DNA of 64,000 bases from the NCBI GenBank assembly GCA_000091205.1, contig AP006491.2; one strand, written 5' to 3'. The first letter of the stretch is position 1; the number at the start of each line of letters is the position of its first letter. The notes under the pieces are model-generated. The model did not search any database, was not told the DNA's origin, and saw nothing but the letters and a program-made list of their open reading frames with translations. Of this stretch, positions 38,025 through 56,836 are shown piece by piece. Origin of the DNA: Cyanidioschyzon merolae. Its lineage: Eukaryota. The position numbers and the translations under genes are program-made.

Positions 38025-41000
38025 CTAGGCACGGGCAGCCAGTATCAAACGATGGAACAATTCGTATTCTGCGGCGTCGATGGAGGCAAGGCGCTGCAGC
38101 ATTTGTTGAAGGGCAGCGGGAGGCATTCGCGCAAACACGTCTTTCACGAGGTCCAGAGTCGACGGCTTGAGCTTGCCCTCGACAACAGCAACCTGGCGCG
38201 CAATCAGCAGAGGTATCATGTCGTACAGGTCGCTTCTATTGGGCAAACCTGCATGCATCGGCAACTGAATCAGAGCGGTGATGGCTGCATCAGCCTCTCC
38301 GAGCTCCGCCTGCAACGGCAAATAGTCCAGCACCGCCTTCAGAGACGTTGGTGCAGTAATGCACTGTGGATGTCGTAGGGCGATTTGCAGCAGAGCCGAG
38401 GCGGCTTTATCTGCCGCCTTTTCAGCGTCCTCATCGTCGCGTGCGTTCGGATCGAGCACGAGTTGCTCCAGCGACTCTGTGATCTGGAAGTTTCGATTCA
38501 TCTCGGCGAAGAGTTGCTGCTCAGTGCACTCAGCACATATTCGAATGCCGTAGGCGGCAGCCGCCTGCACATGTGCCTCTGTATCCTTGAGGTACGCCGC
38601 AAACGCCTGAAATGCTTGCGGCAAAATGTGGACACCGAGTGGACCGCTGAATTCCAGCCATGCGGCCCAGACGTTGAGGGCCGCGCTCCGTTCACTCGGA
38701 GAATGCTCCTGGGATATCATGGATGCAAACAGGCGCCCGACTGTGTTGATCTCCGACATTCCCGTTGAATTCGTTTCCGAGGCCGTTGTGGGGTCCTCCG
38801 CGCGCCACCTCCGACCGCTGGTCCTGGCAGGAGCATCCTCATCGACGTCATCGTTATCGTCGTCATCATTCGTTGATGCTACCGAACGAATCGGCGTCTG
38901 AAAGGCCGCGAAGAATCCGTTCGGCCCGTTGTGCTTCAGGAGGGTGCGTATGAGGTTGCTGCAGCCGAACAGCACCTCATCGTCCAACTCGTCCTCCTCC
39001 TCGAGATTGTGGATCTCATCGTCGTCTAACTCATAGTCTTCTGCTTGGGTGAGGAGTCGCTCGCGCACCCGCTCTTGACGCTCCTTGAGGACACTGAAAA
39101 TGAAACAAGCAGCGTCCAGACATTGCTGTGTGGAGAGCACGCCATCGCCCGCCACCTCTAGCATGTTATCCAGTGCCTCAATCATGGACACCTGCACCTC
39201 CACCTCCGGTTCGTTTTGTGCTGCATGACACAGTTTGGGGAGGAAGAAACTCACAATCTCGCGGACGGCTTCTGCGGAACGTTGCACATCACCCTGGGAG
39301 GTAAAGTGATCCGCCGTGCACTCAACCAAGTCTGGAATAGCCTCCGCCGCAAACTGGCGACATTCATCATGATACCAGAACTCCAAGTTCTCTACAATAA
39401 TCTGCGTTATGTCCATCAGATAAGGAAACAGGGAACCTTTCAGCTCCGCGGCGAAAGATGCTAGAATCGACAATGCGATGGCGCGATCCTCCAGGTTAAA
39501 CGCTCGTATTCCCAGTTTCTTGTTGCCCAAGTCGAGCATCGTATAGCCGTCGTCTGAACGCTTTGCCTGGTCCCCGTTACCGTCCTCTGTGGTGGCGACT
39601 GCCGCTCCCGCTGCACCGGTATAGCCCTGAATAGCGCCGTCGCGGTAATCATTAGCATCCTGAGCTTCCTTCTCGTCCTGGCCAGGAAAGAACTTCATGT
39701 CCGGCTTCAACCGCGCCATTTCGCATATCGTTGGCAGCACGTAGGGCAAATATGGTTCAAACTGCTTGCCAAGGCTCTGACAAATGCGCGCATAAGCCTG
39801 CATCATGTATCCTAGCTGTGGATCATCGGCATGGATTTCCATGTTCATCTGACTGGACACCAAAATCTGCATGATTTCATCGGCGTCAGCACGGAAACGT
39901 TCAGCACCCACCGCGACACCAATCAGCGTCATGCATTCCATGGCCTTGCTCCGCAAGAGACGGTTCCACTTGTCATCAGCGCTCGTTTGGCGGAGAAGGT
40001 GTTTGAGTGGCGGCATGAAGTCGTCGTAGTACTTGTTGAAGGCAGTGCCAACACAGCCGGCAACAGCTGCTACCGCCGTCATGGCCTGCTCGATCGCCAG
40101 ACGCGAGTTGCTGTTCAGCAACGAAATAAGTTTGCCGACGACCGTGTCCAGGTAAGGAATCAAGTTGGCGGCGCTGGCCTCATCGCAGAAGTTGATGAGA
40201 GCCGCGGCTGCATGGCTTCGCACTCGGTTACATGCGTCATCCATAGCGTCAATGAGAGTCGGCACCACATGCCTGTGGAACTTGCGTTGCAGCGTCCCGC
40301 CAAAATCGGTACTCATCTGGCCAATACAGTTGATCGCCGCCCAGCGTACACGAGGATGCGGGTCCTTCGTCGCGCCCACCACGAGCTTGAGGACGTCTCC
40401 AAGTTGCCGCTCCATGTGCTTCTCGCATCCCTCCCCAATCTGATTGATCGTCATGATCGCTGCGTAGCGGAAGCGCCAGTCGTCGCTGCGTTGCAGAAAC
40501 TGATCAATATAGCGGAAGGCTTTCGGCACAACAATTTTGCCCCCCAGTGCAATTGCGATGCGATCAAGAGATCCCTGTGCGGCCTCTAAATTCGAATACC
40601 CTGAATCGTCTTCAGCAGCATCGCCCTCAGATGCTGAGAGTGAGTCTTTTTCATACCATTCCTTTTCGTCGTCGATTTCGGTCATCATATGCATGCATGC
40701 AGTTATAAGCTGTTCGACGATTTGCTGGTTTTTCCGGGTTGAGCTACGAAGATGCTCCGCACATACCGTCAGAAACTCCAGGGCTATTTGGCGGGTTTCG
40801 TCTTCCAGATCGGTATTTCCCATCAGAGCCAGCATGGACGATGCTAGCGATCCAAAGTGGTCGCGGAAGAGTCGCGGCTCGCATTGCAGCATCTCGATAA
40901 TCTCCTCGATGGTTTTCCTGGTGTCCTCCTCGTCGCCGGCAGACATGGCAGTCTCGATGGATGCGCCTAACAAAGGAATCATGTCTCGAAATTGCATACA

Positions 41001-41738
41001 GTCTTTGCTTTCCGCAGTCTCTAAAATCGCGCGCAACGCCTCAATGGCGTGTTCTCGCACCTCAGCGTCCGGGTCCATGAGCCCTGGTCGCAAGATCTCG
41101 TGTAGTTGTCGCAAGTGCGGGCGAAGCGCATCGTCATCAAGATAGTCAAGCAGGCAAGCCAGGAGGTTCAGACCCGAGGCTCGATGACGCGTCACCGTGC
41201 TCGTCGCTAGCGCGTACACAACGCTGAACAACTCCGGCCAGGGTGCCAGTTCCGTGTCTGTGTTTGAAGAATCCACACCACTATGTTCGGCGATGACAGC
41301 ACCGCCAAGCGCTGCGACCACAGCACAAATCTTGCGCAGCTCTGATGGTGTATAGGTCTCGGTACCGTCGGTCTGAAGTGCAAGCAGAAGGCGCTGCCGT
41401 GCCCTCGTAATAACACCCATAGCATTTGCCCCGAGAGACGCTTTCTCCAGCGTCGCTATCCGCTGGCGAAGTAGCACTGCAGCTGCGGATCGAATAACAG
41501 TGGCTGCTGACGGATCGGCTGTACCGAGCGCACCCGCCGGTGCTGTACAGAGAAAGCTCAGCACGTCATAGGTGGCCACCGGTTCCGTAGCTACGAGTTG
41601 GTCAAACTCCGCTTCAGCCTCATGAATTGTCGCTGTAACAGGTGACTGTAACCTGTAAAGCAAAGCAACAACATCCCCCACAAGCCTCGGTGCGACGAGT
41701 TCGGCACTCATCACTGCACTCACGAATAGCGTCGTCAC
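38025..41738 (-). CDS. Importin-beta family karyopherin, importin-5/Kap121 (RanBP5)-like, 1237 aa, with acidic insertion
   Basis: HEAT-repeat protein throughout. DPHPRVRWAAINCIGQMSTDFG parallels the IPO5 motif [20 protein letters not shown]. Internal acidic block TNDDDDNDDVDEDAPARTSGRRW. Confidence 0.85.
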   Translation of the reverse strand: MTTLFVSAVMSAELVAPRLVGDVVALLYRLQSPVTATIHEAEAEFDQLVATEPVATYDVLSFLCTAPAGALGTADPSAATVIRSAAAVLLRQRIATLEKASLGANAMGVITRARQRLLLALQTDGTETYTPSELRKICAVVAALGGAVIAEHSGVDSSNTDTELAPWPELFSVVYALATSTVTRHRASGLNLLACLLDYLDDDALRPHLRQLHEILRPGLMDPDAEVREHAIEALRAILETAESKDCMQFRDMIPLLGASIETAMSAGDEEDTRKTIEEIIEMLQCEPRLFRDHFGSLASSMLALMGNTDLEDETRQIALEFLTVCAEHLRSSTRKNQQIVEQLITACMHMMTEIDDEKEWYEKDSLSASEGDAAEDDSGYSNLEAAQGSLDRIAIALGGKIVVPKAFRYIDQFLQRSDDWRFRYAAIMTINQIGEGCEKHMERQLGDVLKLVVGATKDPHPRVRWAAINCIGQMSTDFGGTLQRKFHRHVVPTLIDAMDDACNRVRSHAAAALINFCDEASAANLIPYLDTVVGKLISLLNSNSRLAIEQAMTAVAAVAGCVGTAFNKYYDDFMPPLKHLLRQTSADDKWNRLLRSKAMECMTLIGVAVGAERFRADADEIMQILVSSQMNMEIHADDPQLGYMMQAYARICQSLGKQFEPYLPYVLPTICEMARLKPDMKFFPGQDEKEAQDANDYRDGAIQGYTGAAGAAVATTEDGNGDQAKRSDDGYTMLDLGNKKLGIRAFNLEDRAIALSILASFAAELKGSLFPYLMDITQIIVENLEFWYHDECRQFAAEAIPDLVECTADHFTSQGDVQRSAEAVREIVSFFLPKLCHAAQNEPEVEVQVSMIEALDNMLEVAGDGVLSTQQCLDAACFIFSVLKERQERVRERLLTQAEDYELDDDEIHNLEEEDELDDEVLFGCSNLIRTLLKHNGPNGFFAAFQTPIRSVASTNDDDDNDDVDEDAPARTSGRRWRAEDPTTASETNSTGMSEINTVGRLFASMISQEHSPSERSAALNVWAAWLEFSGPLGVHILPQAFQAFAAYLKDTEAHVQAAAAYGIRICAECTEQQLFAEMNRNFQITESLEQLVLDPNARDDEDAEKAADKAASALLQIALRHPQCITAPTSLKAVLDYLPLQAELGEADAAITALIQLPMHAGLPNRSDLYDMIPLLIARQVAVVEGKLKPSTLDLVKDVFARMPPAALQQMLQRLASIDAAEYELFHRLILAARA

Positions 41739-43132
41739 TTGAAAGCGGCACAGGGAAGCCGCACGGTTTCTAACGCGTCGACGCGCGGCGCGCGCTGTGA
41801 CATCCAGCCGCCGCCGTCACGCGGGCGCGTTCAACGTGTCCACCTCGAGTGCTGCGCCTCGAGCGGCGTTGGATACACGAGTCTTTGGAGCGGGTGATGC
41901 CTCCGGCGGGGTCCAGGGCAGTCATTCGTATCCTTTGATGGCGCCTGATTCATAGCGTGTGCTAGTACCGATCTGTGGGCAGTTTTAGAGGACGGGTGCC
42001 GGTCGATAGATCGTCCGGGGCTGACACGTCTTCGTTCTGCTAAGAGCAGCGGTGATAGGCTTCCATATGGATAGGTATTGTGTTGGCGCTTTCGAGCCGA
42101 ACAGATGCCTTTCGGATGATGCAGAATATCGACGTTGGTAAACTGGGAAGCCATTCGCTAACACAGAGAGCTTGGGAAACTCTTGTAGAGGATGAAATAT
42201 TCCTGAACACGGACCTGGCTGGACGACGATCTCTTCTCGCCTTGCGGAAATGTGGATGGGGTGCTCGGTGCGCGCTCCGCGGCGGGCGGTATCTCGGAAG
42301 CACCGTACGACCTTGTCGACGGTGATGCCGGCGCCTCGATGCTCCGACCTCTAGTTTTCAGTTGAATGCTGTGCGTTCGAAATGCCTCCTGGGGAGAAGA
42401 ATTCCTGCAGCCATTCGGGAAGTGGCATCTGCGCTTGGCGCTTGTGATGCTACGCTAGCGCGCCAGATGCACGCCTCCTCGATGACATGCGTCTTTGATG
42501 CCAGCGTGCTACTCGTTCTTTAACGGGCATGAGAAGAAAAAACCTCGTTCGTCGAGTTCCTCGAATGGACTCTAGGCGGTCAGCGTCGCTATTATAAATC
42601 ACTTTGCCGCTCGAACTGGTTGCACTGGAAATATCTAGTGGCTATCGGTATGCTGTAACAGAGGTAGAACCCGCAAAACCGAACAAGCATTCCAACGATG
42701 ACGCCGAACGTGCCCAGGGGCGCTGCTGTTCGCCTGCGCAGAGCGGCGCGTGCTAGGCCTGTCTGAACGCGGGACGCAAACACATCCACATACGCGTACG
42801 CATCCATCCAGTGCATCAGGTGGCCCGCATCACCTCGCTTCTACCGAAACTGAACGCGTCCGCAATGAAGATACTTAGATTTGAGGTGAACCAGACACGC
42901 AACATCGGTCATCCATCAAACGCTTGCTGAGCACCGAACCGCTCACATTTTCCTAAACAGACCCAGATGGAATTCCTTTTTATTTTGCATACAGATGCCC
43001 TTTCCATGGGCGGGATCGCGTCGCTTCAGCGTTGTCAACGCTGCAGGCATCGCCTTGACGCTTGAATGATTGGCGCGCGTCGAATCAATGGCAATTCTGG
43101 CGATCCTGCAGCCCCGGTGGCGGCTGCTGTCC

Positions 43133-43184
43133 GGTATGCGTGCGCGGTATGCGTGCGCGGTATGCGTGCGCGGTATGCGTGCGG
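43133..43184. repeat. 13-bp tandem repeat (ggtatgcgtgcgc) x4 in divergent intergenic region
   Basis: Four consecutive units; the last is a variant (ggtatgcgtgcgg). Confidence 0.9.
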
Positions 43185-43274
43185 TAATTGGCGCGAGCCC
43201 GCGAATAACCGCCCGTAGACGCAGGTAAACAGCGTTATTCCAGCCGTCGATAGTGGCAAGTACGTTGAACCGGT

Positions 43275-44270
43275 GTGCGGGTGCTCCCGGAGAACCAGGA
43301 TGTTTTCACAGGTTGCAGTGCGGTGAACGTGTATAGGGTATCAGAGCAAATGTCTGGTTACGCAGTCCGAGAGGACCGCAGTCGTCCTGCGTACGCTTGT
43401 CCAGCGTCCGCGGACTGTGTATACGCGCTGGATGCTGCCACACACTCGGCGAGGCGGAAGCTGCTGTCGTTTGCACAGTTTTGGGCGCATCAGCGTATGC
43501 ACCAGCACCAACCTAACGAAAAAGAAATCGAACAAAGTGTGAAAGGGGTGGAAGCGCGTCCGGCTTGGACCAGGAGCGCTGACGAGGAACGGTGCGCGCC
43601 CTGGGAGCAGCGACTGGACAGGGCTTTCCACTGGAACAACCACGGCCGCGCCGACCTTGACCGGAACGCGTACCTTTACGGGTTAGTTATGGGCGACGCG
43701 TTATATCGCGAGAAGGCGTGGCTATCCGTACGAGGGACAGAATGGGCTCGGACCGCCGACAACGACGAGGTCCGCGGCGTCTACCGAAACATACGTTGTG
43801 ACTGGGCGCCTTGCGGCGTGATGCTGCGTGACCTCACGGAACTAGCAGCACACTGTCTCACGCACCTAGATACCAAGTATCACGTTCCGCAAAGCGTTCG
43901 GACACAGTTTGGTCCAGGACAAGCTGTGGACATCCTCGACGGCGAGATGATCTGGTATCCGGCGCGCATCATAGATGCAAGTCCGGGTCGTTTTCTAATT
44001 CGTTACGACGACGAACAGTGGTCACAGGAAGAATTCGATGAGTGGGTTTGGCGAGACAGTCCCCGCATTGCCCCGCGCGGCTACTACACTGCAAGCAAAC
44101 GAAGTCTTCCGCAGGGCACATATTTGCCTCAGAACAACGCGAATCCTCCGCGAGACGAAGGCAAAACCGCTGCGATAGATGCTGTTTCACAAGGGCGTTA
44201 TCGAGTTAGACATTATACAGGACGAGCAAACCGCAAACGAGCGTTGAATGCTTCCTTTTATCGCCGTTGA
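43275..44270 (+). CDS. Putative chromatin-associated protein: N-terminal-type C2H2 zinc finger (CxWxxC...LxxHxxxH) plus Tudor-knot/chromo-barrel-like domain
   Basis: IRCDWAPCGVMLRDLTELAAHCLTHLD gives the finger pattern seen in JAZF1/AEBP2/ZIC-type first fingers. GQAVDILDGEMIWYPARIIDASPGRFLIRYDDEQWSQEEFDEWVWRDSPRI resembles MRG15/Eaf3-type barrels (VHYKGWKNTWDEWV..DRI). Confidence 0.55.
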   Translation: MRVLPENQDVFTGCSAVNVYRVSEQMSGYAVREDRSRPAYACPASADCVYALDAATHSARRKLLSFAQFWAHQRMHQHQPNEKEIEQSVKGVEARPAWTRSADEERCAPWEQRLDRAFHWNNHGRADLDRNAYLYGLVMGDALYREKAWLSVRGTEWARTADNDEVRGVYRNIRCDWAPCGVMLRDLTELAAHCLTHLDTKYHVPQSVRTQFGPGQAVDILDGEMIWYPARIIDASPGRFLIRYDDEQWSQEEFDEWVWRDSPRIAPRGYYTASKRSLPQGTYLPQNNANPPRDEGKTAAIDAVSQGRYRVRHYTGRANRKRALNASFYRR

Positions 44271-46280
44271 ATTTCGAGCACCCTGCCCTGCTGGCCATGA
44301 AAAGCACTTTTGAGCTGGGATATACCGGGGTTGCTGGCCTAGGAACGCGCAACTGTGGGCTGCTATTCCGCAATGCCACGGAAATGAAGCCGCTGCTCCG
44401 CTCGAAATGATGATTCTCGCAGCGGCACTTGCCACGGGCGAAGAAACAGTGTCGCAGTTTGCGGCATTATGCCGGAATCTCCGGCCGTCCATGAACCACC
44501 GTGGTAAGAAGCAATTATCGGCGCTTTGTTGCCGGTCTGAGCATGAAAGTTTTCATCCAAGGCGGCAGGACTTGCTGGCGTTTTATCACGCGGTTGCGAG
44601 TGAGCCGGCATTGTTCGGACCGCGCGGCGTTGCCGACCGCTGGCATTTCCGCCCCCGCGTCCAAGCTTGAATTTATAACAATTTTCTGCGCCCTGGTGCG
44701 CATCACATCACCACAGCGAGCACAGTCTGCTCAGCCTGAATACGGAAAGTATCCAATTGTCGTCGTGGCATGGTTTGTCGCAAACACACTCAGAGGCAAA
44801 TGCCGGAAATGGACGACAGCTCGAGCCCACGGCATTTGTACTCGACAAAAACGCTGCCGTAGATGTTTTCTCGGGAAGCATGCCTCGCGGGCAAAAACTG
44901 AAACGAAATACGTGACGTAGACGCTACGGAATCGTGAGACGTATGCGCGCTTCACGATGATTGCCTGGCGGTTGGTCATACCCGGACGGGCGACATTGGT
45001 GGCCTCGGGGGATGCACTGCACGTTCGAGCTCTTTCATGCGCGTGTGAGTCGCCTGGACAGTATGATCGGCCCGGTTGCGTCCTGAATACTGTGCAGGGC
45101 GTTACTTGGCAGCGCTTGAAACAATGGATGCCGCGTCTCGCAATGCCGCTGAGCCTACATGTTCTGGGACGAGTCGCTCCGAGGCGCATGGTCCTTGAGT
45201 CCAATACTTGAGGGCAATCGCCTTTCAGAAACGTCTTTACTGCGCTGGCTCCGCAGCTCGATTGCGAGCGAGGCGCTGTTCTGTGGAAAGCACTGAAAAG
45301 AGTGCATGAACTCCCGAAAATGCGAAACAAGCGGCCTGGTACCGCGATAACCCGCCAGGCAAGTACCGACGACAGCCGAGTTGGTGATTCGTACTCTCGC
45401 CCATAGTTTTGCTAACTTTGAGCCCAAATCAGCGGACCGCTCGAGTGCTGCTCGAGTGTCCCGATGCCATGCATTCATCCATCCATTCACGCATCCGACC
45501 GAGTCATCAGCTCTCGTGCCAAGAGCAACGCTGCGAGACGGAAAGTGATGCACCAAATCGCGTTCCACTTGCACCGTCAGGATCGCGAGACAAAGTGCGC
45601 ACGAAGGCTTTCCATAGAAGCTGCGATAACATCAAAGAAGAACTTTTCAGTGCGGACCCGAGAACGTTCAACTTTTTGTGACCGTAGCACATCTGTGCCA
45701 TCAAGGCATCGACTGCGCTCTCTCAGTGCACAGAACCTGAACGATATCTCGTATTCGCCCGCAGGATCAGCTACCTATTAGACCAGATGACATCTCGGCG
45801 GTGGCAGTAACTTATCAAACGCCAACATTTGGTTACATGGTGTGCAGTCGCATACCGCCATAGCAGCAAACGCCACGTGCCCGAGGGATTATCGCATCGA
45901 GCTCGGGGAGCATACGCCATTCGACAGGCAGCATGGATAAAGGAAGACAATCGATCGGCATACAGCCTCGCCTACGGGCACGGCATGTAGTGAACTTTTG
46001 TATCGCGTACCGAGGAGGCGTGCAAGGATCCTAGGGTTCTGGTTGCGCCTCGCGCACTGCACCTGGGGCCGCTTCACGCATCGCGATCAATCGTGTGCGT
46101 GTCGCGAGCGTCGCAGAGGGGGCGTCACGAACTGCTCGTTGCGGGCGTTCAGAGCGTTTTGCATGATGCATCGATTCGCGATACCTCAAGGCGCTGAGTA
46201 GACTCCGCCTCGGCATTGGTTCCCATACCTGGCCTTGCGCAGCAAGCGGATACTGCTATGTAATGCCGTCTACGCTGGCT

Positions 46281-47990
46281 CTACTGGTTCGCCTGAATGC
46301 GATTCTGTGCATCTCTGACTTCCAGAGGCCAATCCACCACGAATACAATGTAGCAAATGTAAAAGAGTGCTAGACATAATTCTCCCATAGCAAATCCTAA
46401 CCAAAATCCATTGACACCCTGACGAAAGACAAATGCAAAGAGCGCTGCTAGCGGAACACACCCCGTCCAGAAACCGAGGAAGCTCGCAAGAGCACCAGTC
46501 CGCTGCTTCCCGATCGATTTGAGAATCCCCACACTCGTGTACTGCAAGCAATCCTGAATTTCAAACAATGATACGAAGAGCGCGGCCTGTGCAGCTCGTT
46601 CGCCGATATAAGCATCATTTGTGAGCAGTCGTGGCCAGCGATCGCGCGTGCTCGTCAGTAGGATCGCAAGAAGTATGCCGGCAACCGCGGCTACCATTAA
46701 TCCCAGGCGAGCGGCGAGTCGTGCTGCCGCTGCACATCCCGCTCCGACCAGATTCCCGACCTGAACGGACACGCCAATATGGATCGAAAGCGGTAGCATA
46801 AAGCAGAAATAGACGGCATTCATAAGAACTGCCTGAGTCGCCACCGCATCTGCCACGGAACGATCTCCCGGATGCGGCGGTAAACGCGCGGCCATAAAGA
46901 GCGTGACTTCAAACGCGCCCCATTCCACGAGCACCCATGCGGTTCCGGGGAGTGCCAAAGCAAGAAAAGGTGTCCATTCTCGCCATAACTCGCGGAAGAG
47001 GGCACGCGGCGCTCCGTCATGAGCATCGTTCCCGGACGCCGGCACTGAAACGTACACCCCAGACGGCGACAATAACGAATGCCAACATTGCTCACCGAGG
47101 CGCCACTTGTACATCACGAGCGCAAGCGTTCCCAGGAGCGCCCACTGACTCAAGGCGAGTGACAGCGCTGCACCGCGGATACCCCAGTGCAGTCCCGGAA
47201 TGAGCACGGTGTGGAAAAGGACGTTGGCAACTGCCGCTACGAGGGTCACCTGAATGATGGGCCTTACGATTCCCTGAGCCTGAAGGAATCGTTTCAGGAC
47301 CTCGTACAGGATCATCGGAACGAGTCCGAGGGTGTACCATCGGCAGAGTGCTGTTGCCAAGGCTACAGTCTGATTACCTGCAGCAGCTGCAGCAGCAGTT
47401 GATAATGATGATGAGGCCGCCGCAGCCGTTTCCGGTGTGAGCAGAGCAGCAAGCACGTGTGGCGCCAGTCCGTTCCAGAGCAGCGCTATTAGTGGTGCAA
47501 CGACGACAAGCTGAATGACAGCACCACGCAGTGCAACCAGCGCCACAGTGCGATAGTCACCGGCTCCGTACGCATTTGCACAGAGCGTATCCAAAGCGGA
47601 GCAGAAGCCCGCAACCAGCGCGTTTCCTGTGATGTTGACCAGTGCCAGACCTAGACCTATCGCAGCGAGAGACTCCGGATCAGTCCAGTGACCAATGAAA
47701 GCGGTGCTGACAAGCGTCAACGACGCCTGGCCAACGTACGAGAGCAACACCGGCAAAGCGAGCTGCGTGATCGACTGGATGAGCTCCAGTGCAGTGCGTG
47801 TACCTCTCTCCGTGCCGGCTTCGTGATCAACCAGCCTCTTCTGGCGAGCGACGGTCGAACGGTCCCCAGTCACTGTAGAGTCCGCTTTGCCGGTGGGTTC
47901 CATTAACGTTGGTTCCAGAGGCCTTCCTTCGTCGACCAGCGGTGGTTCAATCATCAGGCGCTTCTTGGCACCGTGAACCGTGCCGTCCAA
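46281..47990 (-). CDS. MATE (multidrug and toxic compound extrusion) family transporter
   Basis: 12-TM architecture. N-terminal MATE motif LALPVLLSYVGQASLTLVSTAFIGHWTDPESLAAIGLGLALVNITGNALVAGFCSALDTLCANAYGAGDY. Second repeat with FMAARLP and AQAALFVS. Confidence 0.9.
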   Translation of the reverse strand: MDGTVHGAKKRLMIEPPLVDEGRPLEPTLMEPTGKADSTVTGDRSTVARQKRLVDHEAGTERGTRTALELIQSITQLALPVLLSYVGQASLTLVSTAFIGHWTDPESLAAIGLGLALVNITGNALVAGFCSALDTLCANAYGAGDYRTVALVALRGAVIQLVVVAPLIALLWNGLAPHVLAALLTPETAAAASSSLSTAAAAAAGNQTVALATALCRWYTLGLVPMILYEVLKRFLQAQGIVRPIIQVTLVAAVANVLFHTVLIPGLHWGIRGAALSLALSQWALLGTLALVMYKWRLGEQCWHSLLSPSGVYVSVPASGNDAHDGAPRALFRELWREWTPFLALALPGTAWVLVEWGAFEVTLFMAARLPPHPGDRSVADAVATQAVLMNAVYFCFMLPLSIHIGVSVQVGNLVGAGCAAAARLAARLGLMVAAVAGILLAILLTSTRDRWPRLLTNDAYIGERAAQAALFVSLFEIQDCLQYTSVGILKSIGKQRTGALASFLGFWTGCVPLAALFAFVFRQGVNGFWLGFAMGELCLALFYICYIVFVVDWPLEVRDAQNRIQANQ

Positions 47991-55822: not shown

Positions 55823-56836
55823 TTACTTATGAAGGGAAGGTGATGAAATCGGATTCGCAGAAGATCGTTCGCTGGTTACAGCACGTCCCCCGGTGCTGCG
55901 GCGACGAGTATGCGTTGCATCGTAACCCGTTAGGTAGCGCCAGAAAAGCTGCATGCCCTCCCAGATGCGCAAAAGACGGCTACCACGCCCGCCGTATCGT
56001 TGTTTGCCCCAGCTGAACGGGACATAACCATATAAACGCATGTGTTCAATCTGGCGCTTCATGGTAACCGAGAATAACACGAGGAAATACAGAACAAGCA
56101 CAGGCCAGTATACTGGCACATCAAAAATTGGGACCAGCGTAGCAACGAACGACATCGCGACACTTTTCAGACTTTGCCACCAAAACTGGAACTCGGGAAG
56201 ACGTCGCACAAAAGGACGATACTCAAGATTCGTCCCGTTCAAGGGATCAAGCTCTGCAAAGGCGCCAGTTGAACCACTCGTCCGACGTCGAATCGGGAGG
56301 GCGATGCGCTCATCCTCCTGAATTTCGTTCACGTCGCGTGGTTGCAAAAAGCCGAGCATCAGGTTAAGATTGTATATGGCAAGAGCGTAGGCAACAACGT
56401 AAAATCCTTGGGTCCAGTAGACACGCAAAGCAAAGAGCGCTCCAAGCGTCCAGAGTGCCAGCCAGCGAGCCGTGCGGTGCGGCACGGAAATGTCTAACCA
56501 GTGCTGGAGACGACGCCTCCAACGATACGAATACCGCAAACTGTAGGAACGCACAATACCCAGCAAGTTTGTGTTTTCGACAAAGTCTGCATCTGATGCT
56601 CGCATTGATGAAGAAGCAGGGCTACTCGAGGTCAAGTCAACGGGGGCCGCACTCGTTGCCATCGTCGAAACGCTCCGGCCGAACACCGGCCCCGCAGGCT
56701 GAGGTATTCCGGGGGCGGTGTGTTCTCCACTTTGAATATTTGTTCCAGGTCTGATGGTAGTCCAAGTGGTGCCACCACCATACGGCCGAAAAGCGTTGCC
56801 GGGTAAAGCACCTCGATCGGCAGGACCAGCGCTCAT
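55823..56836 (-). CDS. RER1: RER1 (retention in endoplasmic reticulum 1) family protein
   Basis: ARWLALWTLGALFALRVYWTQGFYVVAYALAIYNLNLMLGFLQP, PFVRRLPEFQFWWQ, FDVPVYWPVLVLYFLVLFSVTMKRQIEHMRLYGYVPFSWGKQRY are near-identical in pattern to RER1. Likely starts at an internal Met (56662 or 56605). Confidence 0.85.
   Translation of the reverse strand: MSAGPADRGALPGNAFRPYGGGTTWTTIRPGTNIQSGEHTAPGIPQPAGPVFGRSVSTMATSAAPVDLTSSSPASSSMRASDADFVENTNLLGIVRSYSLRYSYRWRRRLQHWLDISVPHRTARWLALWTLGALFALRVYWTQGFYVVAYALAIYNLNLMLGFLQPRDVNEIQEDERIALPIRRRTSGSTGAFAELDPLNGTNLEYRPFVRRLPEFQFWWQSLKSVAMSFVATLVPIFDVPVYWPVLVLYFLVLFSVTMKRQIEHMRLYGYVPFSWGKQRYGGRGSRLLRIWEGMQLFWRYLTGYDATHTRRRSTGGRAVTSERSSANPISSPSLHK

Follow-up and report, generated by a model that had tools for sequence, protein, structure and literature searches.

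The closest described counterparts of the gene analysed here are the first Tudor domains of PHF20L1 and PHF20, which are human NSL-complex readers (PDB 6l0x and 3sd4), and the MBT-repeat proteins (L3MBTL1/3, MBTD1, SCMH1/Scm and SFMBT), in which two to four repeats interdigitate, every repeat consisting of an arm and a core. A C2H2 finger is present in PHF20 proteins too, at some point along a chain about three times longer than the 306 residues of the protein considered here. That protein is CMI257C (XP_005536408.1 / BAM80122.1, annotated as "hypothetical protein"), encoded on the forward strand of a stretch of 64,000 nucleotides, hereafter the window, from chromosome 9 of the red alga Cyanidioschyzon merolae 10D. 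The conserved core of CMI257C is one module, consisting of a single C2H2 finger and, 17 residues after its last zinc-ligand His, a single barrel of the MBT/PHF20-Tudor1 type that starts at G190. The features of the gene that carry this assignment are as follows.

43350..44270, forward strand: CMI257C coding sequence, 306 amino acids plus stop; 35.5 kDa, isoelectric point (pI) 8.8
43785..43874, forward strand: predicted classical C2H2 zinc finger, residues 146-175; C150-x4-C155-x12-H168-x3-H172, with a CDWAPCG motif
43875..43916, forward strand: short conserved basic connector between finger and barrel, residues 176-189; K176 and R184 invariant
43917..44087, forward strand: MBT/PHF20-Tudor1-type Royal-family β-barrel, residues 190-246; acidic, pI 4.2

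The barrel and its pocket

The barrel (GQAVDILDGEMIWYPARI...DEWVWRDSPRI, residues 190-240) is recognised by Pfam MBT (PF02820): the whole protein scores 24.3 bits and the barrel by itself 27.3 bits, against a gathering cut-off of 22 that all five family members pass. Agenet and Tudor_3 are weaker relatives within the same Pfam clan. Searched with phmmer against the PDB sequences, the barrel finds PHF20L1 Tudor1 (E = 1e-5), PHF20 Tudor1 (1e-3) and L3MBTL3 (2e-3), and hhalign aligns the family barrel to PHF20L1 Tudor1 with 95% probability (E = 2e-8, 43% identity over 53 columns). Structure prediction, which an earlier note on this DNA had named as a check, agrees: AlphaFold2 (AF2) gives a barrel with a predicted local distance difference test score (pLDDT) of 70-88. 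The best Foldseek matches in the PDB are PHF20L1 Tudor1 (template modelling (TM) score 0.71, root-mean-square deviation 1.9 Å), L3MBTL1/3 and PHF20 Tudor1, the weaker structural neighbours being the Tudors of Pcl, PHF19 and MTF2 and the barrels of MRG15, Esa1 and KAT5. The first Tudor of PHF20L1/PHF20 is therefore the best match by sequence, by profile and by Foldseek, with 34-43% identity over 53-59 residues.

The same note had called the domain a Tudor-knot of the MRG15 kind. It was right that this is a Royal-family barrel of the methyl-lysine-reader type; the sub-family has to be changed. Neither Pfam Tudor-knot (PF11717) nor MSL3-chromo matches CMI257C at E<=10, and hhalign of the family barrel against the MRG15 chromo-barrel, whose sequence was entered by hand, returns a probability of 1.4%, and on these grounds the label was rejected. 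Unlike the MRG15/Eaf3/Esa1 chromo-barrel proteins, CMI257C has no MRG domain, and its pocket begins with Asp. The distance from finger to barrel, put earlier at about 80 residues, is in fact 42 from start to start (I148 to G190).

In PHF20L1 Tudor1 the cage is formed by Y24, Y29, F47, W50 and Y54, with D23 making a hydrogen bond to mono- or di-methylated lysine (Kme1/2), and H3K36me1 binding needs each of the cage aromatics (PMC13285377). The order of these residues, Asp first and Trp later, is a swap relative to other Tudors, which have Asp where PHF20L1 has Trp (PMC13285377). In CMI257C the residues D197, G198, Y203, Y219, W224 and F229 align to PHF20L1 D23, Y24, Y29, F47, W50 and Y54 respectively, and all are invariant in the orthologues. 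The swap and four aromatic cage positions are thus common to the two proteins, with Gly198 in place of Y24. Checking the aromatic cage, as had been proposed, therefore finds the pocket intact (D197 with Y203, Y219, W224 and F229). Judged by this alignment, CMI257C has a predicted Kme1/2 cavity, that is, the Asp together with at least three aromatics at the positions of PHF20L1 D23, Y29, F47, W50 and Y54.

A wider set of barrels gives the same picture. An exhaustive profile search of the CMI257C family covered 1.84 billion representative proteins, and 196 related barrels were extracted from the 108 proteins that it matched outside the Cyanidiales. Position 197 is Asp in 128 of these barrels and position 224 is Trp in 133, and positions 219 and 229 are almost always aromatic. 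At position 198 the usual residues are T, G, S or A, and Gly198 is therefore typical, with Y24 a peculiarity of PHF20L1. The barrel is also strongly acidic (12 D/E against 6 K/R), which would suit a ligand on a basic tail.

The search further showed that full-length relatives of CMI257C fall into only two clusters at 50% identity, both from Cyanidiales; the remaining 108 matches are to the barrel only or to the finger only. The closest barrels outside the Cyanidiales belong to unrelated large proteins of Glomeromycota, one oomycete and Rhizaria, and the partner domains beside such outside barrels include PHD, RING, UBA, DUSP-UCH and methyltransferase domains. As there is no full-length similarity outside the Cyanidiales, CMI257C is not an orthologue of PHF20 or PHF20L1. 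It lacks the tandem Tudor1-Tudor2 and C-terminal PHD that mark such orthologues; no second Tudor, PHD finger or AT-hook was detected with Pfam, and, unlike the arrangement in PHF20 and PHF20L1, the finger immediately precedes the barrel on its N-terminal side. Nor is it a canonical MBT-repeat protein. These have at least two tandem repeats, whereas CMI257C has one MBT stretch according to Pfam and one barrel in both AF2 models, and the type of zinc finger differs, that of CMI257C being of the classical C2H2 pattern. With CMI257C the MBT/PHF20-Tudor class gains an architecture of one barrel linked to a finger; the protein is probably a lineage-specific version of a familiar kind of chromatin reader, not a new system.

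The finger and other parts of the chain

The finger (IRCDWAPCGVMLRDLTELAAHCLTHLD, residues 148-174, with C150 at nucleotide 43797) has the spacing C-x2-4-C-x12-H-x3-5-H, with L159 and L165 at the core positions. Its ligands C150, C155, H168 and H172 are invariant in the orthologues, as are D151, W152, A153 and G156. The spacing pattern arises in 18 of 20,000 shuffles of CMI257C, and has just two matches in the six-frame translation of the window; the other match, at 56822 on the reverse strand inside an open reading frame (ORF) at 55823..56836 (CRSRCFTRQRFSAVWWWHHLDYH), is probably due to chance. A profile of the finger region matches the PDB fingers of PRDM9, KLF4 (CDYAGCG, CDWDGCG), Gfi-1, YY1, Sp1, ZNF410, ZAP1, WT1 and TFIIIA, with E values from 3e-5 to 5e-2, and the full-length family profile also matches multi-C2H2 proteins in the large protein library. 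Pfam zf-C2H2 has no match to the finger at E<=10, and the only Pfam hit is a sub-threshold one to FOXP-CC (E = 0.04), so that support for the family comes from profile-to-sequence searches only. In the AF2 model there is a hairpin (strands 146-149 and 158-161) followed by a helix (162-174), making a ββα unit, at pLDDT 52-61. From its sequence we conclude that this is a classical C2H2 finger in the common CxWxxCG first-finger style.

The CxWxxC finger described in the earlier note is thus confirmed by its spacing, its invariant ligands and the C2H2 profile matches. Its assignment there to the JAZF/AEBP2 type found no support in the profile searches. There is no match to zf-C2H2_jaz (PF12171) at E<=10, and no AEBP2 or JAZF1 chain among the 41 PDB matches of the finger profile at E<=10, and that label was given up; the CxWxxC motif is common to many unrelated first fingers.

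Fingers of the KLF/Sp/YY1/ZAP1/FOXP type have the C-x4-C-x12-H-x3-H spacing and the CDWxxCG motif in common with that of CMI257C. Unlike these, CMI257C has a single finger and not an array, and it has no linker of the TGEKP type. A further difference lies in the helix. With H168 at +7, as in the standard register, the residues at the base-contact positions are D161 (-1), T163 (+2), E164 (+3) and A167 (+6), with N/D, A/S, E/D and A/E/R respectively in the orthologues, so that -1 and +3 are acidic in most. Residues that are acidic, small or variable at these positions argue against canonical reading of DNA, which on this basis appears doubtful.

The rest of the chain divides into four parts.

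43392..43502, forward strand: N-terminal atypical Cys2-His2 motif, residues 15-51; Y-A-C17-P-x4-C23-x23-H47-x3-H51
43503..43601, forward strand: variable acidic linker, residues 52-84; not alignable between species
43602..43784, forward strand: conserved lineage-specific module, residues 85-145; RLDxAFHWNNHGR...KxW...RGxxWA...NDExxGVY
44088..44267, forward strand: basic C-terminal tail, residues 247-306; 13 K/R, pI 11.5

The division of the protein into finger, MBT-type barrel and these other parts can be given with high confidence. The N-terminal motif, possibly a finger that binds zinc and contains a long insert, is shared by Cyanidioschyzon and Cyanidiococcus, where it is conserved, and is absent in Cyanidium; it has no Pfam or PDB match, and AF2 models it at pLDDT 41-47. 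In the module at residues 85-145, 24 positions are invariant across the three genera. It has no relative among the 1.84 billion representative proteins or in Pfam, and its pLDDT is below 50, also when it is modelled as a sub-construct. The tail has two conserved motifs, YTxxKRxLPxGTxLP and YTGRAxRKRAxN, and is possibly a nuclear localisation signal or a contact to nucleic acid or the nucleosome. The terminal RKR is absent from the Cyanidium gene models, and none of the frames beyond the Cyanidium stop codon (L003:1400-1790) contains it. It is worth adding that these models disagree over the C-terminus: P0023 (C. caldarium, EukProt) has 414 residues, and P0022 and P0004 have 258-260.

Conservation and candidate functions

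The ORF at 43275..44270 on the forward strand, from which the earlier note started, is present in the window. Its listed GTG start is a product of the bacterial-code ORF lister; the eukaryotic start is the first ATG, at 43350, and gives a 306-residue product that matches XP_005536408.1 exactly. Orthologues are confined to Cyanidioschyzon, Cyanidiococcus and Cyanidium, with identities of 59-65% in Cyanidiococcus yangmingshanensis and related environmental genomes and 40-51% in Cyanidium caldarium. Between species the nonsynonymous divergence (dN) is 0.09-0.33, and the synonymous divergence (dS) is saturated (>1.2 or undefined). By region, dN is 0.09-0.11 in the barrel, about 0.2 in each of the finger, the N-terminal motif and the module at residues 85-145, and above 1 in the linker at residues 52-84, making the barrel the most constrained region of the protein. 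DNA and translated similarity to the relatives ends at the borders of the coding sequence (CDS), in two blocks (43382-43502 and 43602-44270). The order importin-5 (reverse), CMI257C orthologue (forward), MATE (reverse) is kept in the relative L001, and MATE, Pcc1 and LYR are kept downstream of the orthologue in Cyanidium (L003). CMI257C is thus a real gene that codes for a protein; it is under strong purifying selection and occurs only in the Cyanidioschyzon/Cyanidiococcus/Cyanidium lineage.

The reading that we prefer, with a rough probability of 0.55, is that CMI257C is a small adaptor that would read mono- or di-methylated lysine. The suggestion of a small chromatin reader or recruitment factor made in the earlier note remains the best one. 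The reality of the gene, its conservation, the identity of its domains and the conservation of the pocket are shown, and from there on methyl-lysine binding, a histone target, a nuclear location and an adaptor role are inferred. The low-methylation type of pocket and the acidic barrel surface are the grounds for proposing that a basic tail, in all likelihood that of a histone, would place its methylated lysine in the barrel cavity. There D197 would make a hydrogen bond to the remaining proton of Kme1 or Kme2, and the aromatic walls Y203, Y219, W224 and F229 would surround the lysine. The finger would more probably buttress the barrel or bind a partner protein than read a DNA sequence, the basic C-terminal tail could supply nuclear import and/or non-specific contact to DNA or the nucleosome, and the module at residues 85-145 may, together with the N-terminal Cys2-His2 motif, recruit an effector.

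Several points weigh against this. PHF20 Tudor1, which has the same fold with R24, has no detectable histone-peptide binding, and the mutation Y24A weakens binding by PHF20L1 (PMC13285377); a pocket with Gly198 might therefore be weak, or need another residue. The PHF20L1 Tudors bind nucleosomal DNA independently of methylation (PMC13285377), and peptide reading may therefore not dominate in the class. The finger fold is predicted at a pLDDT of only 52-61, and half of CMI257C is without a confident AF2 model. Finally, no paper or searched supplement mentions the gene.

Of the alternatives, the one that survives best, although we consider it unlikely, is that the ligand of the barrel is a methylated protein other than a histone, or RNA or DNA bound directly, with a role for example in RNA processing or DNA repair. 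The methylation-independent DNA binding of the PHF20L1 Tudors has been mentioned above. The strongly acidic barrel (pI 4.2) disfavours binding of nucleic acid by the barrel itself, and an Asp standing where the first aromatic would be marks the Kme1/2 pocket of MBT/PHF20, not the methyl-arginine cage of SMN/TDRD (PMC13285377). No RNA-binding domain was detected in CMI257C by the Pfam scan.

Rather less credible is a sequence-specific DNA-binding transcription factor, in which the finger or fingers and the basic tail would bind a motif and the barrel would be a surface for protein-protein contact or dimerisation. GAGA factor binds its DNA motif by a single finger and basic flanks in this way, UniRef labels CMI257C a "C2H2-type domain-containing protein", the finger profile is nearest to the DNA-binding fingers of KLF, Sp, YY1 and ZAP1, and the chain has two Cys2-His2 motifs and a very basic tail. 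However, D161, T163, E164 and A167 are acidic, small or variable, unlike the residues of DNA-reading fingers; CMI257C has a single canonical finger, the N-terminal motif being missing in Cyanidium and without a match in Pfam or the PDB; and the barrel is the most constrained region and has a full ligand pocket, which is not expected of a mere scaffold.

More speculative again, and improbable as a whole, is the proposal that CMI257C founds a Cyanidiaceae-specific family of chromatin adaptors, in which the finger helix and connector would act as the "arm" of a one-repeat MBT composite reader, and the orphan residues 85-145 would be a new fold recruiting an effector specific to the lineage. If this were true, the protein would be a compact MBT-like compaction or silencing factor for a minimal 16-Mb genome, replacing the multi-repeat MBT proteins of the Polycomb system.

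An accessory subunit of Polycomb repressive complex 2 (PRC2) or of NuA4, analogous to AEBP2, JAZF1, Polycomb-like or Eaf3/MRG15, is very improbable. C. merolae does have PRC2 and H3K27me3 (PMC8788455), and the Tudors of Pcl, PHF19 and MTF2 and the barrels of MRG15, Esa1 and KAT5 are among the weaker structural neighbours. Against this, the sequence matches none of AEBP2, JAZF1 and the Tudor-knot, MRG and PHD domains, and the nearest relatives of the barrel are MBT and PHF20 Tudor1. Lastly, the idea that the ORF is a pseudogene or arose by chance in GC-rich DNA, its motifs being accidental, which the merely hypothetical annotation and the lack of precomputed Pfam domains on record might have suggested, is refuted by the orthologues in three genera with kept synteny, by a dN far below the saturated dS, by conservation that ends at the CDS borders and by the significant domain matches.

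As a model, C. merolae is open to genetic manipulation, and both its nuclear genome, which is minimal, and its set of chromatin proteins are small. Its PRC2 and H3K27me3 have been studied, while its chromatin readers have hardly been touched, and a search of the literature for C. merolae Tudor readers or Kme1/2 marks found nothing specific. A protein of 306 residues with a Kme1/2-type pocket and a finger could reveal which low-methylation marks are read in red algae. Otherwise, the result amounts to annotating the domains of a hypothetical protein in the ordinary way, and leaves current ideas as they are.

Surroundings of the gene

The neighbours of CMI257C and the one repeat in its upstream spacer are as follows.

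38025..41738, reverse strand: importin-5/Kap121-type karyopherin, divergent neighbour; Pfam TPR_IPO5 (6.8e-27), Importin_rep_4 and Importin_rep_6
43132..43183, no strand: perfect 13-bp x4 tandem repeat (CGGTATGCGTGCG); Tandem Repeats Finder score 104, 100% matches, 167 bp upstream of the ATG
46281..47990, reverse strand: MATE efflux transporter, convergent downstream neighbour; Pfam MatE (2.4e-37), kept in L001 and in Cyanidium L003

The Pfam matches bear out the divergent importin-5 gene that had been reported beside CMI257C. Its ORF is listed from a GTG, with the first ATG at 41711, and the orthologue in L001 has 1211 residues. About 1.6 kb separates the two start codons. The 13-bp repeat does lie in this shared spacer, one base from the coordinates given earlier (43133..43184). 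It occurs nowhere else in the window, and is missing from the relatives L001, L003 and L004, whose spacers do not align; a regulatory role for it, considered here, finds no support, since the relatives lack it and the spacer shows no conservation.

Scans of 41000-47000 found neither a tRNA nor an Rfam RNA. The 2 kb from the stop codon to MATE (44271-46280) contains no ORF conserved with the relatives, and no tRNA or Rfam match; such a stretch is unusually long for a compact 16-Mb genome. Upstream of the gene there is a short ORF of 8 codons (43300-43326, forward strand; atg ttt tca cag gtt gca gtg cgg tga), out of frame and ending 24 nt before the main ATG, which could modulate translation of CMI257C if the transcript starts upstream of 43300.

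The environmental contigs L005-L010 carry a 99%-identical gene, and their ends cluster just upstream of it (equivalent to 43075-43295 of the window). The start of L006 falls within the 13-bp repeat, those of L008 and L010 fall at about 43219-43225, and L009 and L010 are just about 1.1 kb long, comprising the gene and about 75 nt of 3' sequence. Either the assemblies broke at the repeat, or the contigs are transcript-like, which would hint at a start near 43220. Upstream of the equivalent of about 43219, L005 carries an unrelated sequence (L005:1-135) that encodes a Lys/Ala-rich, histone-tail-like peptide (MSGKAKAPAAKAATTAKKVAASKAKAKGKAHS...), and that results from chimeric assembly or else from a rearrangement in an environmental strain.
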